A stretch of DNA of 35,371 bases from an uncultured Candidatus Saccharibacteria bacterium (GTDB taxonomy: Bacteria; Patescibacteriota; Minisyncoccia; Portnoybacterales; UBA2143), in NCBI GenBank assembly GCA_964589195.1, contig CAZPQT010000002.1:1-35371 (forward strand), in the 5' to 3' direction. How positions within the stretch are numbered: position 1 is the first letter of the stretch; the number at the start of each line of letters is the position of its first letter. Of this stretch, positions 6,841-30,922 are shown one piece after another. Position numbers and translations under genes: made by a program. The notes under the pieces were generated by a model. The model was not told where the DNA came from. It saw only the letters and a list, made by a program, of their open reading frames with translations, and did not search any database.

Positions 6841-8063
6841 TGTCTATGCTTCAAAAAATTATTCATTTCACTATTTGTTTAATAGTTTTATCTTTGCCTC
6901 TTTATTTGATTCGTTTGAAGATTGGCTGGATGCCGACTAATCTTTTGGAATTGATGGTTGGCGTATTGTTTATTGTTTGGCTGTTGCAAATAACGCGAGG
7001 ACTGTCCTCAAACAGCAGTCCTAAGGACTGCTGTTTGAGGACAGTCCTCGCTCCCGTGTTTTTGATTTTTCTCGGCATTACTATTTCTACCCTCTTTTCA
7101 GTTGATGTGATAACTAGTGCTGGTATTTGGAAGGGCTGGTTTATTATTCCTCTGATTTTCTTTATTGTCATTATCAGTCATCTAAAGAGCAAAGAGCAGG
7201 TCAGAGACATTCTTTTCGCTTTATTTTTATCAGGAACCGGCGTGGCTTTAGTCGCCTTTTTTTATTGGTTGAATGATAATTTAACTTACGATGGTCGCTT
7301 ACGGGCTTTTTATCTTTCGCCTAATCACTTGGCCATGTATTTATCGCCTGTTCTAATTTTGTCTTTTTATTTATATCCTTCTTTTAAAAAAAATATTTCC
7401 AGAATTTTACTGTTTACAGCCGATTGTCTATTATTTACTGTCATTTACTTAACTTACTCTTACGGCGCCTGGTTAGGAATAGGAGGCGCTTTAATTTTTA
7501 TTTTAATCATTTTTTTTAGGAGTCGGACTCCTGAAAACAAAAGGCATTTTTTTTACCTGATGAGTTTTTTTCTTTTGTTGGTTGTTCTCTCCTTCGTCTG
7601 GCAAATCCCCAGTCAAAAATTTCAGGGCTTCCTTGATTTTTCTTATCCTTCCTGGCAATCCCGGCTAATTATCTGGCAAAGCGCCGGGGAAATAATAAAA
7701 GACCACTCCTTAATTGGGATTGGTCCGGGTATGTTTCAAAAATATTATTTGGCTTACCAGGCTAAATCTCCGACTTATTTAGAATGGGCTGTCCCTCAAC
7801 CTCATAACCTTTTTTTGGCTTTCTGGCTGCAAACCGGCCTGCTCGGCTTAATGGGTTTTATCTGGTTGTTGTCTATTTTTTTTAGAAGCGAGGATTCTAA
7901 AAGAAGCCTCGCTTCTAAATTGTTATCGAATATTCTAATGGCCACTATGCTCTATATCCTCATCCACGGCTTAGTTGATACCACCTACTGGAAAAACGAT
8001 TTATCAATTATCTTCTGGCTGCTCATAGCTCTAAACTATACAAATGACCGTCTCTCTTATTAA
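6840..8063 (+). CDS. Second O-antigen ligase-like polytopic membrane protein
   Basis: YSYGAWLGIGGAL ... QPHNLFLAFWLQTGLLGLMGF. The ATG at 6840 overlaps the upstream TGA (ATGA). The ORF track starts at an in-frame TTG at 6837. The gene carries a 57-nt palindromic in-frame insert at 6995-7051. Confidence 0.75.
   Translation: MSMLQKIIHFTICLIVLSLPLYLIRLKIGWMPTNLLELMVGVLFIVWLLQITRGLSSNSSPKDCCLRTVLAPVFLIFLGITISTLFSVDVITSAGIWKGWFIIPLIFFIVIISHLKSKEQVRDILFALFLSGTGVALVAFFYWLNDNLTYDGRLRAFYLSPNHLAMYLSPVLILSFYLYPSFKKNISRILLFTADCLLFTVIYLTYSYGAWLGIGGALIFILIIFFRSRTPENKRHFFYLMSFFLLLVVLSFVWQIPSQKFQGFLDFSYPSWQSRLIIWQSAGEIIKDHSLIGIGPGMFQKYYLAYQAKSPTYLEWAVPQPHNLFLAFWLQTGLLGLMGFIWLLSIFFRSEDSKRSLASKLLSNILMATMLYILIHGLVDTTYWKNDLSIIFWLLIALNYTNDRLSY
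6995..7051. repeat. 57-nt perfect palindrome (28-nt arms, 1-nt centre), GGAC-N-GTCC family, inside a CDS
   Basis: GCGAGGACTGTCCTCAAACAGCAGTCCT-A-AGGACTGCTGTTTGAGGACAGTCCTCGC. The length is 19 codons. It translates as RGLSSNSSPKDCCLRTVLA within the ligase-like protein. Confidence 0.9.
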
Positions 8064-20957: not shown

Positions 20958-21452
20958 ATGAAAGGAATTTGCTTGTTTTGTGTCTTGGGAATATTCTTGA
21001 CTGCTTGCGCTTTTCAAGTTAAGGATTATCCGGTGATTAAAGACCCTAATTATCCTCGGGTAGTGGTTAAGGAAAAAGAGGGAAACGTAGTTAAAGGAAA
21101 GAAGCCCCAGGAAGAAAGAATCCAGGTAGGAACTTTTTATCCGGATCCTACTCGAGGTTATATTGAAAACCAGACCTATAATGTTTTCATTATGATTTGG
21201 CTGGATCCGGTTTTTGAAAAAGGAAAAGCCAAGGGTCCGCCCGATTTTGACCTGCCGCCCAAAGCAGTTGTTGAAGCAGTGATGCCCTTGGGCGGGCATA
21301 ATATTTATGCCCAAGGCAGAATGAAAACAGAGCAGTATGGCTGGCAGTCATTGGGGGAAGCTAACAAGAGATTCTCAATTGATTCCCGGGTCTATTATGA
21401 CGAAAATTACGGCTGGTACATCATTTTTCATCAAGGCGATTTTGAACGATGA
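20958..21452 (+). CDS. Lipoprotein, hypothetical
   Basis: 164 aa. Signal peptide with lipobox (VLGIFLTAC|AFQ). GGAGG lies upstream of the ATG. The 3' end overlaps the convergent rsmA by 22 nt. Confidence 0.75.
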   Translation: MKGICLFCVLGIFLTACAFQVKDYPVIKDPNYPRVVVKEKEGNVVKGKKPQEERIQVGTFYPDPTRGYIENQTYNVFIMIWLDPVFEKGKAKGPPDFDLPPKAVVEAVMPLGGHNIYAQGRMKTEQYGWQSLGEANKRFSIDSRVYYDENYGWYIIFHQGDFER

Positions 21453-22276
21453 AAACGATGGAATAATTTCAGCCAGTCCTCAACGGACAGGTTTTCTGCC
21501 CTGACTTGAATGTCTAAACGACATTGAGTCAGGGCTTTTTTTATTTTTCCCCGGTCTAAGTTGAGTTTTTGAAAAAGGTTATTGATTAATTGTTTTCTGG
21601 GACTGGCAAAGCCAGCTTTGACGATTCGGAAAAACTTTTCTGGGTTGATGTTTTTCGGTTTTTTAATCTGGCTGATTTTAATGATGGCGGAATCTACTTT
21701 GGGTCGAGGCCAGAAAGATTTTTTGGAGACGTAAGAAATGATTTTTGGCTGGCTGTAAAATTGGACGGCTACGGCTAACAAACTCATTTTCGGTGGCTTG
21801 GCGCAAATTCTTTGAGCCACTTCTTTTTGAATCAGGAGAATCATTTCTTGAGGCGGCCGGGCTGATTCTAAAAATAAACGAATCAGCGGCGAAGTTAAAT
21901 AGTAAGGAATATTAGCTACTACCTTATATTTCTTTAGGGACAGTCCCTCTGATACAGTCCTTGATTCAAGGACTGTATCAGAGGGACTGTCCCTGAGAAT
22001 CTTGAGAATATCGTTGTGGATAATTTCAACATTCTGGTGATCTTTCAAGGTTTCTTGTAGTCTGGTAACCATTCGTTTATCTTTTTCCACGGCTATAACT
22101 TTTTTGGCTCTTTGGGCTAATTCTTGAGTAAGAATGCCTAAGCCGGGGCCGATTTCCAAAACAATATCTTTTTTAGAAATTTCAGCAGTCTGGATAATTT
22201 TTTGGAGCGCTTTTTGACTAATTAAAAAATGCTGGCCTAATCGTTTACTGGGCTGGAGATGACATTTTTTAAACAT
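21431..22276 (-). CDS. rsmA: 16S rRNA (adenine1518/1519-N6)-dimethyltransferase RsmA/KsgA, carrying a palindromic-element insert
   Basis: LGQHFL near the N-terminus. SAM-binding VLEIGPGLGILT. VVANIPYYLTSP motif. Typical C-terminal helical domain. The segment RDSPSDTVLESRTVSEGLS is encoded by the repeat at 21936-21994. Confidence 0.9.
   Translation of the reverse strand: MFKKCHLQPSKRLGQHFLISQKALQKIIQTAEISKKDIVLEIGPGLGILTQELAQRAKKVIAVEKDKRMVTRLQETLKDHQNVEIIHNDILKILRDSPSDTVLESRTVSEGLSLKKYKVVANIPYYLTSPLIRLFLESARPPQEMILLIQKEVAQRICAKPPKMSLLAVAVQFYSQPKIISYVSKKSFWPRPKVDSAIIKISQIKKPKNINPEKFFRIVKAGFASPRKQLINNLFQKLNLDRGKIKKALTQCRLDIQVRAENLSVEDWLKLFHRFHRSKSP
21936..21994. repeat. 59-nt perfect palindrome (29-nt arms), GGAC-N-GTCC family, inside rsmA
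   Basis: AGGGACAGTCCCTCTGATACAGTCCTTGA-T-TCAAGGACTGTATCAGAGGGACTGTCCCT, read directly from the sequence. Confidence 0.9.
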
Positions 22277-22282
22277 AGATGA

Positions 22283-22341
22283 TGAGGGACTGTCCCTAAG
22301 ATACAGTCCTTCAAGGACTGTATCTTAGGGACAGTCCCTCA
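22283..22341. repeat. 59-nt perfect palindrome, GGAC-N-GTCC family, at the helicase/rsmA junction
   Basis: TGAGGGACTGTCCCTAAGATACAGTCCTT-C-AAGGACTGTATCTTAGGGACAGTCCCTCA. It encodes the helicase C-terminus EGLSLRYSP and its TGA stop. Confidence 0.9.
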
Positions 22342-24221
22342 GGAATATCGGAAAGGAATCTAGAAGGTGGATTAACCATGGTTTGGCCATAGAGGCGCCG
22401 TTGTTGGGTAAATGTAAGATAGACCCGTTGTTTGGCTCGGGTTATCCCCACATAGCAAAGCCGTCTTTCTTCTTCCATTTGTCCAAGGTCAAAAGAGCTT
22501 CTTGAATGGGGAAAAATTCCCTCTTCACAGCCAATAATAAAAACCACCGGAAATTCTAATCCTTTGGCGCAATGCAAGGTCATTAAATTGATTAAGTTCT
22601 TTTTTGTCTCCACTTCATCAAGACTACTTAATAAAGAGACTTCTTCTAAAAATTTTTCCAAGCCCAAACCGGGTTTCAGTTGATTATATTTATTAGCCAC
22701 GGTCAAAAGTTCTTGGACATTTTCCCAGCGCCTCTCCCCTTCTTCTTGACCATCACGAATATATTTTTCGTAATTAATTTTTTGGATGATTGTTTTGATT
22801 AAATTAGTTAAAGGCATTTTTTGGCTGGTTTGGCGGAAATTGTCAATTAGTTGATAGAAGTTTTTAAGTGGTTCAGGGACAGTCCCTAATCTCCAGTCCT
22901 TTTCCGAAGGACTGGAGATTAGGGACTGTCCCTGATACTTGGCTAAACGTCGGGGAGGAACATTAATGATTCTTTGGCAACTAACCAAATCATTAGGATT
23001 AACAATCAGTTTAAGATAAGCCAGCATATCTTTAATTTCTTTTCGTTCATAGAACCTGACCGTGCCAATAATTTTGTAAGGGAAATTTGCTTTTAAAAAG
23101 GCCTCTTCCACAGCTCGCGACTGGGCATTGGTCCGGTAAAGAACAGTGAAATCCTGAAACTTGAAGCCTGAAACTTGAGATAAATTAGTTATCTCATCGA
23201 CAATAAAATTTCCCTCTTTTTCTTCATCGGCTAATTCAACAAGATTAATTAAATCTCCTGGGGGATTTTTAGTCCAAAGGTTCTTTTCTTTGCGTTGAGT
23301 ATTTTTGCTGATAATATGGTGGCTGGCCTCTAAGATATTGGGAGTGGAGCGGTAATTCTCTTCTAAAAGAATCACTTTGGCCTGAGGATAGTCCTTTTCA
23401 AAATTTAAGATGTTCCTGAAGTCAGCTCCTCGCCAGCTGTATATTGACTGGTCTGGATCGGCAATAAGCCAGAGATTTTTATACTTTTCAGCCAATAAAT
23501 TTATTAAAGTATATTGGCTGAGATTTGTGTCATGGGCCTCGTCAACTAAAATATACTGCCATTTTTCCTGGCATTTTTTCAAGATAGCCGGATTTTTCTG
23601 GAAGAGTTGGACAGTCAGCATAATTAAATCATCAAAATCAAGGGCATCGGCCTTTTTTAAAGCAGTTTGATAAGCCAGGTAAATTTTAGCTATGGTCTGG
23701 GGAAAATATTCTTGGGCTTGGGCTTGATAGGTCTGACAGTCAATTAATTCGTCTTTAGCTCGGGAAATCATTTCGCCAGCTGATTTTGGCTTGAATTGTT
23801 CTGGATTAATTTGCAGGTCTTTGATTATTTTTTTAATTAAAGAGAGCTGGTCAGTTTGGTCATAGATAATGAAATTTTTTTGATATCCCTTTAGTCCGTC
23901 CTCTGGCGGAAATTTATCTATTTCCCGACGGAGAATTTGTAAACAAATAGCATGAAAAGTGCCAATGGTTGGCGCAGACTGAGAAGGGCCGCTTCTCAAG
24001 AGAAGTTTTTTAACCCTTTCTTTCATTTCTCCAGCGGCTTTATTGGTAAAAGTAACGGCCAGGATATTGGCTGCAGGAATATCTTGCCGAATAAGATAGG
24101 CAATGCGGTGAGTTAAACAACGAGTTTTCCCCGAGCCCGGTCCGGAAATAACTAAAACCGGTCCCCTTAAAATGGTGACCGCTTGTTTTTGTTTTGGATT
24201 AAGTGAAGAAAGTATGTCCAT
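22311..24221 (-). CDS. pcrA: UvrD/PcrA/Rep-family ATP-dependent DNA helicase, carrying palindromic-element sequence
   Basis: SF1 helicase motifs: ISGPGSGKTRCL (I), TFTNKAAGEM (Ia), ILVDEAHDTN (II), IADPDQSIYSWRGA (III), ENYRSTPNIL (IV), LYRTNAQSR, LMTLHCAKGLEFPVVF (V), EEERRLCYVGITRAKQ (VI). Confidence 0.9.
   Translation of the reverse strand: MDILSSLNPKQKQAVTILRGPVLVISGPGSGKTRCLTHRIAYLIRQDIPAANILAVTFTNKAAGEMKERVKKLLLRSGPSQSAPTIGTFHAICLQILRREIDKFPPEDGLKGYQKNFIIYDQTDQLSLIKKIIKDLQINPEQFKPKSAGEMISRAKDELIDCQTYQAQAQEYFPQTIAKIYLAYQTALKKADALDFDDLIMLTVQLFQKNPAILKKCQEKWQYILVDEAHDTNLSQYTLINLLAEKYKNLWLIADPDQSIYSWRGADFRNILNFEKDYPQAKVILLEENYRSTPNILEASHHIISKNTQRKEKNLWTKNPPGDLINLVELADEEKEGNFIVDEITNLSQVSGFKFQDFTVLYRTNAQSRAVEEAFLKANFPYKIIGTVRFYERKEIKDMLAYLKLIVNPNDLVSCQRIINVPPRRLAKYQGQSLISSPSEKDWRLGTVPEPLKNFYQLIDNFRQTSQKMPLTNLIKTIIQKINYEKYIRDGQEEGERRWENVQELLTVANKYNQLKPGLGLEKFLEEVSLLSSLDEVETKKNLINLMTLHCAKGLEFPVVFIIGCEEGIFPHSRSSFDLGQMEEERRLCYVGITRAKQRVYLTFTQQRRLYGQTMVNPPSRFLSDIPEGLSLRYSP
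22873..22935. repeat. 63-nt palindrome (29-nt arms, 5-nt loop), GGAC-N-GTCC family, inside the helicase gene
   Basis: TCAGGGACAGTCCCTAATCTCCAGTCCTT-TTCCG-AAGGACTGGAGATTAGGGACTGTCCCTGA. The length is 21 codons. It translates on the minus strand as QGQSLISSPSEKDWRLGTVPE. Confidence 0.9.
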
Positions 24222-29000: not shown

Positions 29001-29067
29001 GTCAAGGACTGTATCTTAGGGACAGTCCCTATGTTACAGTCCTTGGTATGACGAGGACAGTCCTTGA
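29001..29067. repeat. Composite/rearranged copy of the GGAC-N-GTCC palindromic element between pilB and pilC
   Basis: 29004-29030 (AAGGACTGTATCTTAGGGACAGTCCCT) is identical to the right arm of the copy at 22313-22339. TCAAGGACTGT (29002-29012) pairs with ACAGTCCTTGA (29057-29067). Confidence 0.8.
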
Positions 29068-29100
29068 ATTGATAGAAATTAGGATTTTGGATTTAGGAAT
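29053..29100 (+). repeat. Inverted-repeat arm abutting the pilB stop codon (partner at 30850-30898)
   Basis: GAGGACAGTCCTTGAATTGATAGAAATTAGGATTTTGGATTTAGGAATT matches the reverse complement of 30850-30898 at 44 of 49 positions by hand alignment. Confidence 0.8.
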
Positions 29101-30849
29101 TTAATCTTGACTGACCCTCAAAACCTCTTCAATGCTAGTTTGTCCCTGGGCGGCCTTAATAAAACCATCTTCAAGCATAGTCAGCAAACCTTCTTTTTTA
29201 GCTTGTTCCTCAATTTGGCCAGAGGTAGCTTCTTTAATGATTAGGTCCTTGATTGTCTCACTGAGTTCAAGAACCTCATAGATACCAACCCGGCCTTTGT
29301 ATCCGTCAGGACAATTTTCTGATTTGCCTGGTCGATAAAATTCAAGAGATGACCAATCGGCTTTTGAAGGAAGAATTTTTTCTTCTTTAAGGATTTTAAG
29401 AATTCTTTCTAAATCGAATTGGTTTTGAAGACTCTTGAGCTCAGCTGGATCGAGTTTGTATTTTTGTTTTGTCTCCGGACAAAGTCGGCGAACTAATCGT
29501 TGAGCTATAATAACATTGGTCGTTGAGGCAATAAGGAAGGGTTCGGCTTTCATATCAATCAGCCGGGGAAAAGTCCCGGCCGCGTTATTGGTGTGTAAAG
29601 TAGAAAGGACCAGATGGCCGGTTAGAGCAGCGTTGATAACCAAACTAGCTGTTTCATTATCCCTAATCTCACCAACCATAATGATGTCCGGGTCTTGACG
29701 AACTAAGGCGCGTAAGCCGTTGGCAAAGGTCAGGCCGATTTTTGGTTTGACTTGGGTTTGATTAATTCGAGGCATGCGGTATTCAATCGGGTCTTCAACG
29801 GTTGAAATATTGACGCCTGGTTCATTAAGAATATCCATAATTGTATAAAGAGTGGTTGTTTTGCCGCAGCCAGTTGGCCCGGTGACTAAAATCATCCCAT
29901 TTGGCTTTTTGATGTTTTGATGAATTCTTTCCAGGGCTTTACTTCTTAGACCTAATTTTTCTAAAGTTAAGCCCTTAGCATCTTCCGGGAGAAGTCGGCA
30001 GACAATTTTTTCTCCATCATAAACCGGCAGAATGGAAACTCGGAAAGAAATTTTGTATGCTTCGGTTTCAATTTTAAAACGGCCGTCTTGGGGCAAACGA
30101 TGTTCATCTAATTTTAGATTAGATAGGACCTTAATCCGAGCGACCACGCCTGAACGAATCTTTCTGGGCAGGGTCATGGCATCATGTAAAATGCCATCAA
30201 GGCGATAGCGAACAATAACTTCTTTTTCCAGAGGTTCAATATGAATATCCGAGGCCTGCTGTAAAATTGCGTGCTTAAGCAGCGTATCTACAATCTTAAT
30301 AATGGGCATTTGTTCGGCTGCTTTTTCTAACTCTTCCTTACTTTCTTCTCCTTCTTTTTCTGGCAGAGTGACTATTTTGGATTCTTCTTTAATTAATTCG
30401 CCGAATTCGGCTTCTAAACTTTTTTGATATTGCTTGAGGGCATTTTTAATACTGACTGAATTAGTTAACCGAGGCAGGATTTTTAAGTCGGATTTCTTTT
30501 TAATAAATTCAATTGTCTGCAGGTCATCTGGATTAAGCATAGCCACTTCTAATTCTTTGCCTTTCTTGCGGAAAGCAATAATATTGTGTCGCCGAGCAAT
30601 TGGTTCGGGAATAATTTGCAGAATTTCTTCAGGGATAGTTTCTTTCTCTAAATTGACAAAAGGAATGCCGAGGATATAGGCCTCTAGCTTGATTAGTTGT
30701 TCTGGGCTAATTATTTTATCTTTAACTAAAACTTGAGCCAATTCCTCATTGGTTTCTTTTGCCTTTTCTTCAGCCCGGTCTAATTTTTCTTGAGTGGTCA
30801 GCCCAGTGTCAAGAATAAAGGCCTTGATTTGTGAATCTTCAACCTGCAT
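29101..30849 (-). CDS. pilB: Type IV pilus assembly ATPase PilB (GspE family)
   Basis: N-terminal T2SSE_N-like domain. Walker A GPTGCGKTTT. Walker B/Asp box DIIMVGEIRD. His box TGHLVLSTLHTN. Cys pairs CPETKQ...CPDGYKGR. I prefer the ATG at 30849 (MQVEDSQ..) over the upstream in-frame TTG at 30882 used by the ORF track. Confidence 0.9.
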   Translation of the reverse strand: MQVEDSQIKAFILDTGLTTQEKLDRAEEKAKETNEELAQVLVKDKIISPEQLIKLEAYILGIPFVNLEKETIPEEILQIIPEPIARRHNIIAFRKKGKELEVAMLNPDDLQTIEFIKKKSDLKILPRLTNSVSIKNALKQYQKSLEAEFGELIKEESKIVTLPEKEGEESKEELEKAAEQMPIIKIVDTLLKHAILQQASDIHIEPLEKEVIVRYRLDGILHDAMTLPRKIRSGVVARIKVLSNLKLDEHRLPQDGRFKIETEAYKISFRVSILPVYDGEKIVCRLLPEDAKGLTLEKLGLRSKALERIHQNIKKPNGMILVTGPTGCGKTTTLYTIMDILNEPGVNISTVEDPIEYRMPRINQTQVKPKIGLTFANGLRALVRQDPDIIMVGEIRDNETASLVINAALTGHLVLSTLHTNNAAGTFPRLIDMKAEPFLIASTTNVIIAQRLVRRLCPETKQKYKLDPAELKSLQNQFDLERILKILKEEKILPSKADWSSLEFYRPGKSENCPDGYKGRVGIYEVLELSETIKDLIIKEATSGQIEEQAKKEGLLTMLEDGFIKAAQGQTSIEEVLRVSQD

Positions 30850-30898
30850 AATTTGTAAATCCAAAACCCTAATTTCTATCAATCCAAGGACTGTCCTT
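30850..30898 (-). repeat. Inverted-repeat arm abutting the pilB start codon (partner at 29053-29100)
   Basis: The minus strand reads AAGGACAGTCCTTGGATTGATAGAAATTAGGGTTTTGGATTTACAAATT, immediately followed by the ATG. It includes the core palindrome CCAAGGAC-T-GTCCTTGG (30884-30900). Confidence 0.8.
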
Positions 30899-30922
30899 GG
30901 CAGAATTCAGATATCAAAAATT

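Follow-up and report, generated by a model that had tools for sequence, protein, structure and literature searches.

The perfect 59-nt palindrome inside the rsmA reading frame, at positions 21936 to 21994 of the window (the whole 35,371-nt stretch of DNA that was analysed), is real, REPIN-like and in frame, and is most probably translated, as part of a loop that varies in length among RsmA proteins; the host is an ultra-small, Portnoybacteria-like bacterium. We consider it likely that the element is a copy of a lineage-specific dispersed repeat that is translated as a tolerated, disordered RsmA loop, was most likely spread by a RAYT-like transposase and is probably kept perfect by correction of its arms.

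On the plus strand, the element was read as AGGGACAGTCCCTCTGATACAGTCCTTGA-T-TCAAGGACTGTATCAGAGGGACTGTCCCT, i.e., two 29-nt arms (21936 to 21964 and 21966 to 21994), 100% complementary, around a single unpaired base (21965), i.e., 29 + 1 + 29, in agreement with the perfect 59-nt palindrome claimed by the first-pass annotation. The left arm holds the core GGGACAGTCCC at 21937 to 21947 and the right arm the core GGGACTGTCCC at 21983 to 21993. The host gene, rsmA/ksgA (21431 to 22276, minus strand), encodes 281 amino acids and was identified from its open reading frame, Pfam match, similarity to KsgA and AlphaFold model. The product matched Pfam RrnaAD (PF00398) over residues 11 to 275 (2.9e-62) and KsgA of Bacillus subtilis (1.3e-54). 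It is a full-length RsmA/KsgA, with both SAM-binding motif I (VLEIGPGLG) and motif IV (VVANIPYY), and retained all 33 of the columns that are invariant in the family (77 homologues). The gene had also been called essential, which is too strong a word, since KsgA/RsmA is near-universal, yet dispensable in E. coli.

The element supplies 20 in-frame codons (21935 to 21994, minus strand; residues 96 to 115) between motif III (IIHNDILK) and motif IV. The frame runs ...IIHNDILK-IL-RDSPSDTVLESRTVSEGLSL-KKYK-VVANIPYY, the downstream stretch being KKYKVVANIPYY, and this codon-level read-out was identical to the peptide that had been proposed between DILK and VVANIPYY. The consensus unit of the repeat has TAA, and its mirror TAG, in the frame of rsmA; in the copy within the gene, CT/AG stands in their place, so that both stops are removed and the arms are still complementary. 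The TGA that had been pointed out at 22311 to 22313 lies in a sister copy of the element, and rsmA reads the matching letters as GTC CTT GAA TCA, in which the TGA is out of frame. From the frame and the logic of the stop codons, it is most likely that the element is read as 20 extra residues in a floppy loop of RsmA. As RNA, the element region (sense strand = minus strand) had a folding energy of -58.2 kcal/mol vs. -22.2 ± 3.3 kcal/mol for shuffled sequences (z = -10.8), and an equally stable fold was reached by 0 of 200 shuffles.

The variable loop of RsmA

The stretch between D-I-L-K and (V)VANIPYY was surveyed in 120 homologues and in 86 rsmA loci of the Candidate Phyla Radiation (CPR) for which DNA was available. 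This loop has 27 amino acids in the RsmA of the window vs. 9 to 13 in most CPR lineages, as in IKNYKIKNYK (locus L008), IQNSKFKIQNYK (L007) and IQGLPLGGYK (L003), and the 20 surplus codons are the repeat itself. KsgA of B. subtilis and E. coli has 15 to 18 unrelated residues at the corresponding loop, which makes the segment variable rather than always short. Alignment to orthologues, the first check suggested for an insertion, showed that loops without the repeat were much shorter and that the surplus was the element. No homologous segment of equal length was seen in the repeat-free CPR orthologues, so the interpretation as an insertion stands. The rsmA copy occupies a naturally variable connection between motifs III and IV of the Rossmann domain, to which it adds exactly 20 codons.

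The closest RsmA homologues by name were those of Candidatus Portnoybacteria/Parcubacteria. The element is common to orthologues with 85 to 91% identity (P0002 to P0008; loci L001, L002, L009 to L011, and L015). In L005 (78% identity), the element of rsmA is of the form 27 + 9 + 27, with the second arm in a different reading frame (KDCIRGTV). Single arms were also found, the right arm only in L004 and the left arm only in L006. The rsmA loops of L003, L007, and L008 were without the element, and in L007 and L008 the loop is a hypervariable site with simple tandem repeats.

That hypervariability, together with the ability of template switching to make palindromes de novo (10.1101/2023.04.19.537475), could be taken to indicate that no mobile insertion occurred and that the native loop was duplicated in place in inverted orientation, or that the palindrome arose in assembly. 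We regard such an origin as extremely unlikely. The 26-nt unit of the element was found at 48 places in the genome and also in two other genomes, and this copy number already largely refutes an in-place origin; in addition, the element is present in diverged orthologues. The identical 281-aa RsmA was encoded on 15 contigs, and rsmA from five independent JGI samples showed 0 nucleotide differences, element included; an assembly artefact is excluded by this identity across five independent assemblies.

An AlphaFold2 model of RsmA (77 homologues) had a mean pLDDT of 87.2 and a pTM of 0.85, and Foldseek gave a TM of 0.86 to KsgA of B. subtilis (6ift), the two-domain fold of KsgA being retained. 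Residues 98 to 112, within the insert, had pLDDT <50, and confident strands were predicted on both sides at 83 to 87 (motif III) and 117 to 122 (motif IV). A loop insertion, as proposed, was supported by this model, in which the KsgA fold was intact and the insert was a low-confidence loop between two confident strands. Because the modelled fold is intact and the insert falls below a pLDDT of 50, the insert is predicted to be a disordered loop that leaves the enzyme intact. In the explanation that we favor, the element would be transcribed and translated through into a hydrophilic disordered loop that spares the methyltransferase fold and the catalytic motifs, and would represent tolerated selfish or neutral DNA rather than a functional module.

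Copies, hosts, and other palindromes at the same loops

The genome to which the window belongs (hereafter G000) comprises 558 kb in 41 contigs with a G+C content of 38%. The half unit of the repeat family is GGGACWGTCCCTNNGATACAGTCCTT (26 nt), which has a nested 11-nt core palindrome; two such units in inverted orientation form the hairpin in REPIN fashion. The 11-mer core GGGACWGTCCC occurred 7 times in the window vs. 0.00 expected, and 56 times in G000. A total of 99 matches to the 26-nt unit were found in G000, in 48 clusters. Units were joined tail to tail (57 to 67 nt, the rsmA type, with loops of 0 to 10 nt), head to head with the core at the center (41 nt), or as arrays that reach 93 nt, and these modes of joining together describe a lattice with two alternating mirror centers.

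In addition to the rsmA element, the window contained two sister copies near the gene. One (22283 to 22341; 29 + 1 + 29; hereafter the junction copy) is located between the helicase gene and rsmA, 7 nt before the ATG of rsmA. It encodes the C-terminus of the helicase (EGLSLRYSP), and its center CCTTGAAGG provides the TGA stop at 22311 to 22313. The other (22873 to 22935, minus strand; 29 + 5 + 29) is in frame in the UvrD/PcrA helicase gene as QGQSLISSPSEKDWRLGTVPE; this copy was absent in L003 and L008 and had an inner deletion in L007. A head-to-head form centered on GGGACAGTCCC was found in an intergenic region (29002 to 29045), and a variant palindrome of the GAGGACTGTCCTC type (6995 to 7051, plus strand; 28 + 1 + 28) is in frame and open in an ORF of 413 codons. 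Inverted repeats of 53 nt at 29049 to 29101 and 30850 to 30902 were considered as ends of an autonomous transposon and rejected, as they bracket pilB and not a transposase.

About 15 of the 48 clusters, i.e., about one third, were within long ORFs and open in the frame of the host. Eleven of the hosts had Pfam support: RsmA, UvrD/PcrA, a tRNA-methyltransferase-like/NFACT-R protein, a MiaB-like radical-SAM enzyme, two GT4 glycosyltransferases, LepA, an S11 D-Ala-D-Ala carboxypeptidase, TsaD, FemAB, and ArgRS. Further hosts, recognized by eye, we take to be RpoC, MiaA, and a YraN-like protein. All three frames were used by in-gene copies, giving hydrophilic peptides such as RDSPSDTVL, GQSLRYSP, and KDCILGTVP. 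No clear bias in the codon phase of the palindromes (wobble position paired with wobble position) was found, the counts per phase being 4, 5, and 1. The behavior like that of Rickettsia palindromic elements (RPEs), which the first-pass annotation had suggested from the rsmA copy, was found at the scale of the genome, the family being read through in about 15 genes of G000.

No in-gene copy breaks the frame of its host or carries a stop codon. This argues against the idea that the element goes untranslated, being cut out of the mRNA or bypassed during translation, which we consider very unlikely. A hairpin as stable as that of rsmA (-58 kcal/mol) is the type of structure used in bypassing, with precedents in the palindromic "byp" elements of Magnusiomyces mitochondria and in T4 gene 60 (PMC6649704). 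However, the paired change in the rsmA copy is exactly the one that removes the consensus TAA/TAG, the differences among rsmA orthologues are synonymous, and half elements without a hairpin are also in frame. Moreover, the element has neither a stop after a take-off codon nor a matched pair of take-off and landing sites.

The family comprised 65 units in G000, 56 in G001 (another species of the same genus), and 73 in G017 (another genus of the same family), and was not found in 57 other relatives. When 185,579 species genomes were scanned for the exact pattern, matches were found only in the record of G001 and in one further MAG.

Palindromes unrelated to this family were found in the same RsmA loop in other CPR lineages, with folding energies of -63.9 (L014), -51.5 (L082), -48.3 (L084), -46.5 (L012), -45.3 (L013), -37.2 (L037), -34.3 (L061), and -25.6 kcal/mol (L086). 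Perfect palindromes of rsmA with arms of at least 12 nt were concentrated in the loop between motifs III and IV, with fewer at a second position, +86 to +98. In a tree of RsmA from which the loop was masked, long and short loops were interspersed, and P0009, a member of the clade of the window itself, had a different family at the loop. L014, whose RsmA is 61% identical, had a family of its own (TTGGAGCAGCTCCATTGGAGCAGTTCT...) both in the RsmA loop and in the helicase, where the insert is within one codon of the insertion site in the helicase of the window. Further, the TsaD loop that holds an element of the window family had different hairpins elsewhere (L126, -45 kcal/mol; L127, -47 kcal/mol). 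The rsmA case is an ordinary member of a striking pattern that extends over the genome and apparently over the phylum.

The loops of RsmA, UvrD, and TsaD may be either a few permissive loops or old slots that have been re-occupied. Examples of such sites are the segment between motifs III and IV in RsmA, the segment after INVPPRRLAKY in UvrD, and that after LYxVK in TsaD. It is possible, and in our view rather unlikely, that housekeeping proteins of CPR/Parcubacteria carry long-lived "palindrome slots," in which unrelated hairpin families succeed and overwrite one another. If so, a lineage-wide re-templating, by template switching or driven by RAYT, would keep the hairpins perfect, CPR proteins would owe their insertions mainly to hairpins, beyond chance tolerance, and the hairpins may serve, e.g., as RNase III or ribosome-pausing sites.

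Arm pairing, turnover, and proposed mobilization

Covariation of the arms was assessed over 43 copies from three genomes as well as relatives, and extended to the flank and NN columns, on which collection of the copies had placed no constraint. Paired cells accounted for 96.4% of the total. Both-sided changes were found in 16 of 29 pairs (101 cells), a result that was reached by 0 of 500 shuffles. The rsmA genes of the window and L001 share 87% nucleotide identity; within the element they differ at 4 nt, which form two compensated pairs, all synonymous. By our own arithmetic, the chance of two compensated pairs from 4 differing nucleotides is about 1/3654. Two more compensated pairs were found between orthologues of the junction copy, and three, which are non-synonymous, in the helicase copy. 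The arms have been held perfectly complementary over evolutionary time.

Strains differed in the unpaired center base, which was flipped to the complementary one (A/T in rsmA, G/C at the junction). In rsmA, GAATC is replaced by GATTC in L001 and L010/L011, giving E or D in the protein. The flip in the junction copy, which is polymorphic between samples, converts the helicase stop to TCA and extends the protein to 641 amino acids. Complementary copying from arm to arm and inversion of the loop are signatures of quasipalindrome template switching (PMC7202029), and template switching has been put forward to explain why the coding palindromes in hairworm mitochondria are perfect (PMC6649704). Correction templated by the hairpin at replication, i.e., quasipalindrome template switching or conversion between arms, probably keeps the arms paired; it would copy changes from one arm to the other and flip the center base. 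Combined with deletion between the internal cores, the same process would allow elements to grow, shrink, and be replaced in place.

Turnover was seen when sites were compared between G000 and G001 at 87 to 93% nucleotide identity. At some sites, a full copy in G001 corresponded to a solo core in G000 (AGGGACAGTCCC or ACAGGGACTGT), as results from deletion between two direct copies of the core. The number of units differed at other sites, and at one site the two genomes held different palindrome families, family 1 in G001 and a second one in G000. Neither a virgin empty site nor a target duplication was found in these comparisons; the short sites keep a solo core. Among the close relatives, in which the first-pass annotation had suggested looking for an empty site, L003, L007, and L008 lacked the element in rsmA.

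The same compensated changes could be read as conservation of a functional hairpin, whose stem in mRNA or DNA would regulate rsmA and the other hosts, the peptide being a by-product. The stem has been considered as a site of cleavage by RNase III, as a pause for the ribosome between the Rossmann halves, and as a protein-binding site. RNase III is present, the core GGGACWGTCCC resembles the binding site of a dimeric protein, and the unrelated hairpins in the RsmA, UvrD, and TsaD loops of other CPR lineages are in line with such a function. We consider it improbable nonetheless, as close relatives do well with half elements unable to fold (L004, L006) or with none (L003, L007, L008), copies have been gained, lost, and resized between genomes of about 90% identity, and in other samples the junction copy has imperfections. 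Further, the host genes have no function in common, and neutral correction by template switching suffices to account for perfect arms (PMC6649704, PMC7202029).

RNase III bears on the translated loop as well. Loss of this enzyme was considered as a reason why stems in mRNA are tolerated, and was rejected since it is encoded in G000, as in 58 of 61 relatives. With RNase III encoded, a perfect 29-bp stem in the mRNA should be a target of cleavage, which counts against the explanation that the element is a translated loop. More than 10 housekeeping mRNAs with perfect stems of 27 to 31 bp coexist with RNase III in G000.

Under the preferred reading of the element as a dispersed, translated repeat, its spread was most likely mediated by a RAYT-like Y1 (HUH) transposase. 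RAYT-like Y1 genes were found in 35 of 61 relative genomes. In G017, a Y1_Tnp gene (C15:18214-18864; E = 4.5e-13; HUH motif NHVHLL) has arrays of the repeat of the window on both sides, in a REPtron-like layout, and the neighboring spacers of this contig are likewise filled with the repeat. G001 has a single RAYT-like gene, in the rpoB-rpoC spacer, and the hairpin that flanks it is a different one (GAGGAGTGSCACTCCTC), so that the link to a transposase comes from a single genome, G017. The rpoB-rpoC spacer of G000 is without this gene. A transposase resident in G000 was rejected, as searches for Y1_Tnp (PF01797), rve, DDE_Tnp_1, and TnpB gave no hit in G000 and tblastn with the RAYT-like proteins of G001 and G017 gave no match; this absence is not proof, because the assembly has a completeness of 96.6% and is broken at repeats. 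The copies in G000 may be stranded without a RAYT of their own. Judged from sequence, a REPIN/RAYT reading of the family, with a putative cognate pairing, is plausible and about evenly balanced.

Relation to known palindromic elements

RPEs were reportedly described by Ogata et al. in Science in 2000 and in Genome Res in 2002, and have been reviewed since (PMC10969869). The present family resembles them as a dispersed palindromic family in a small-genome bacterium, with many in-frame copies in unrelated housekeeping genes. In both, the reading frame is kept. RPE copies lie at places compatible with the fold, and the rsmA copy is predicted to form a loop of pLDDT <50 between two confident strands. 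Unlike RPEs, which are about 100 to 150 bp and belong to Rickettsia, the family has elements of 57 to 67 nt in CPR/Portnoybacteria-like hosts, and length, host, and pattern matches set the two apart. It is also built on a nested 11-nt core palindrome and keeps its arms perfect by compensated changes, whereas the identity of RPE arms decays with time (PMC6649704).

With REP/REPIN sequences, the family shares a short palindromic unit whose inverted doublets give a larger hairpin, a copy number in the tens per genome, and a mostly intergenic location. As in REP/REPIN systems with a RAYT, a Y1/HUH RAYT-like gene is bracketed by the repeat, although this holds only for the relative G017, and no RAYT was found in the genome of the window. 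Moreover, REPs are classically extragenic, whereas one third of the clusters described here are inside genes and read through.

The coding palindromes of Nematomorpha mitochondria (PMC6649704) are likewise perfect inverted repeats in functional genes with both arms coding. They are "perfect or gone," which suggests active correction of the arms, and show gains and losses between species. They differ in that they form no single dispersed family, overlap conserved regions, reach 284 bp, and reside in an animal organelle. In-frame MITEs (QMITE1 of Coxiella, PMC5896051; ERIC/RU, PMC2759123) are also small non-autonomous repeats that are sometimes fused to host ORFs. However, the body of a MITE is not palindromic and lies between terminal inverted repeats, and MITEs come with target-site duplications and a parent IS, whereas the present element is a hairpin throughout, with no duplication seen and no DDE transposase detected. 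RPEs, in-frame MITEs, and hairworm coding palindromes are thus already known, and the CPR family adds a variant of the RPE or coding-REPIN kind. No earlier description of such elements in Patescibacteria/Parcubacteria was found in the searchable literature.

CPR proteins are known for unexplained insertions. If the reading proposed here is true, translated selfish palindromes in core proteins would not be peculiar to Rickettsia and would be common in the CPR too. Repeats of this kind break MAG assemblies, inflate protein lengths, and yield lineage-specific "domains" that annotation pipelines cannot name. Coding constraint and a perfect hairpin are naturally combined in this family, whose co-evolving arms open three subjects to test: hairpin-templated mutation, the biology of REPINs and RAYTs, and how far enzymes tolerate insertions in loops.

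RNase III, a RAYT-like gene and contig ends in repeat copies

The genome carrying the window (G000) encodes an RNase III (contig C33, 2249-2644), although many of its mRNAs would contain perfect stems of 27-31 bp. In the genome of another species of the same genus (G001), which also carries family 1, the dispersed hairpin repeat, the rpoB-rpoC spacer harbored a RAYT-like Y1 gene (positions 2163-2888 of locus L131, on contig C29) located between GAGGAGTGSCACTCCTC hairpins. The corresponding spacer of G000 (C13:4747-4813, 65 nt) was without this gene and contained a degenerate GGACAGTCC core instead. Several G000 contigs terminated within repeat copies (C4:25-89, C11:82-139, C26:1-44, C13:17247-17272, and C26:5798-5838), indicating that the assembly was fragmented by the repeats; therefore, repeat-adjacent genes, such as a transposase gene, could be absent from the G000 assembly.

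Second palindrome family and repeats flanking pilB

A second palindrome family, CCAAGGACTGTCCTCATATTTGCTTTTT followed by AAAAAGCAAATATGAGGACAGTCCTTGG, was identified in G000, and its core, GGACTGTCC, was common to both families. Sites of this family were found at C6:8630, C7:3035, C10:23472, C11:8685, C13:16262, C20:4942, and C26:1, and a variant was present in the window (6995-7051). At about position 19560 of contig C5, a second-family palindrome was found in place of the family-1 unit present at the same site in G001.

Inverted repeats of 53 nt (89% complementary), adjoining the stop and start of pilB, were located at 29049-29101 and 30850-30902 of the window. In both, a core of the GGACAGTCC type came first and TTGATAGAAATTAGG.TTTTGGATTTA next. 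These repeats could serve as a substrate for recombination or form a mobile promoter/terminator cassette.

Palindromes in the helicase gene and variation of the rsmA loop

A 63-nt family-1 copy in the UvrD/PcrA helicase gene (22873-22935) was read in frame downstream of INVPPRRLAKY. This copy was missing from the relatives' loci L003 and L008 and had an inner deletion in L007, and the L014 gene carried a palindrome of an unrelated family at most one codon from the same site. The helicase of another relative (L005, 1-2939) contained an intein, with Hint and Intein_splicing matches and a product of more than 997 aa.

Another family-1 copy, at the helicase/rsmA junction (22283-22341), encoded the helicase C-terminus EGLSLRYSP and the TGA stop. 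In other samples, C at the centre base converted the stop to TCA, giving a helicase of 641 aa, and a CT/TC swap was also present in the right arm.

The rsmA loop, between motifs III and IV of RsmA, consisted of AT-rich tandem repeats in L007 and L008, both palindrome-free at this site: a 7-nt unit, AAAATTC (approximately 4.7 copies), and a 15-nt unit (two copies, KIKNY KIKNY). Hence, slippage also makes this loop hypervariable.
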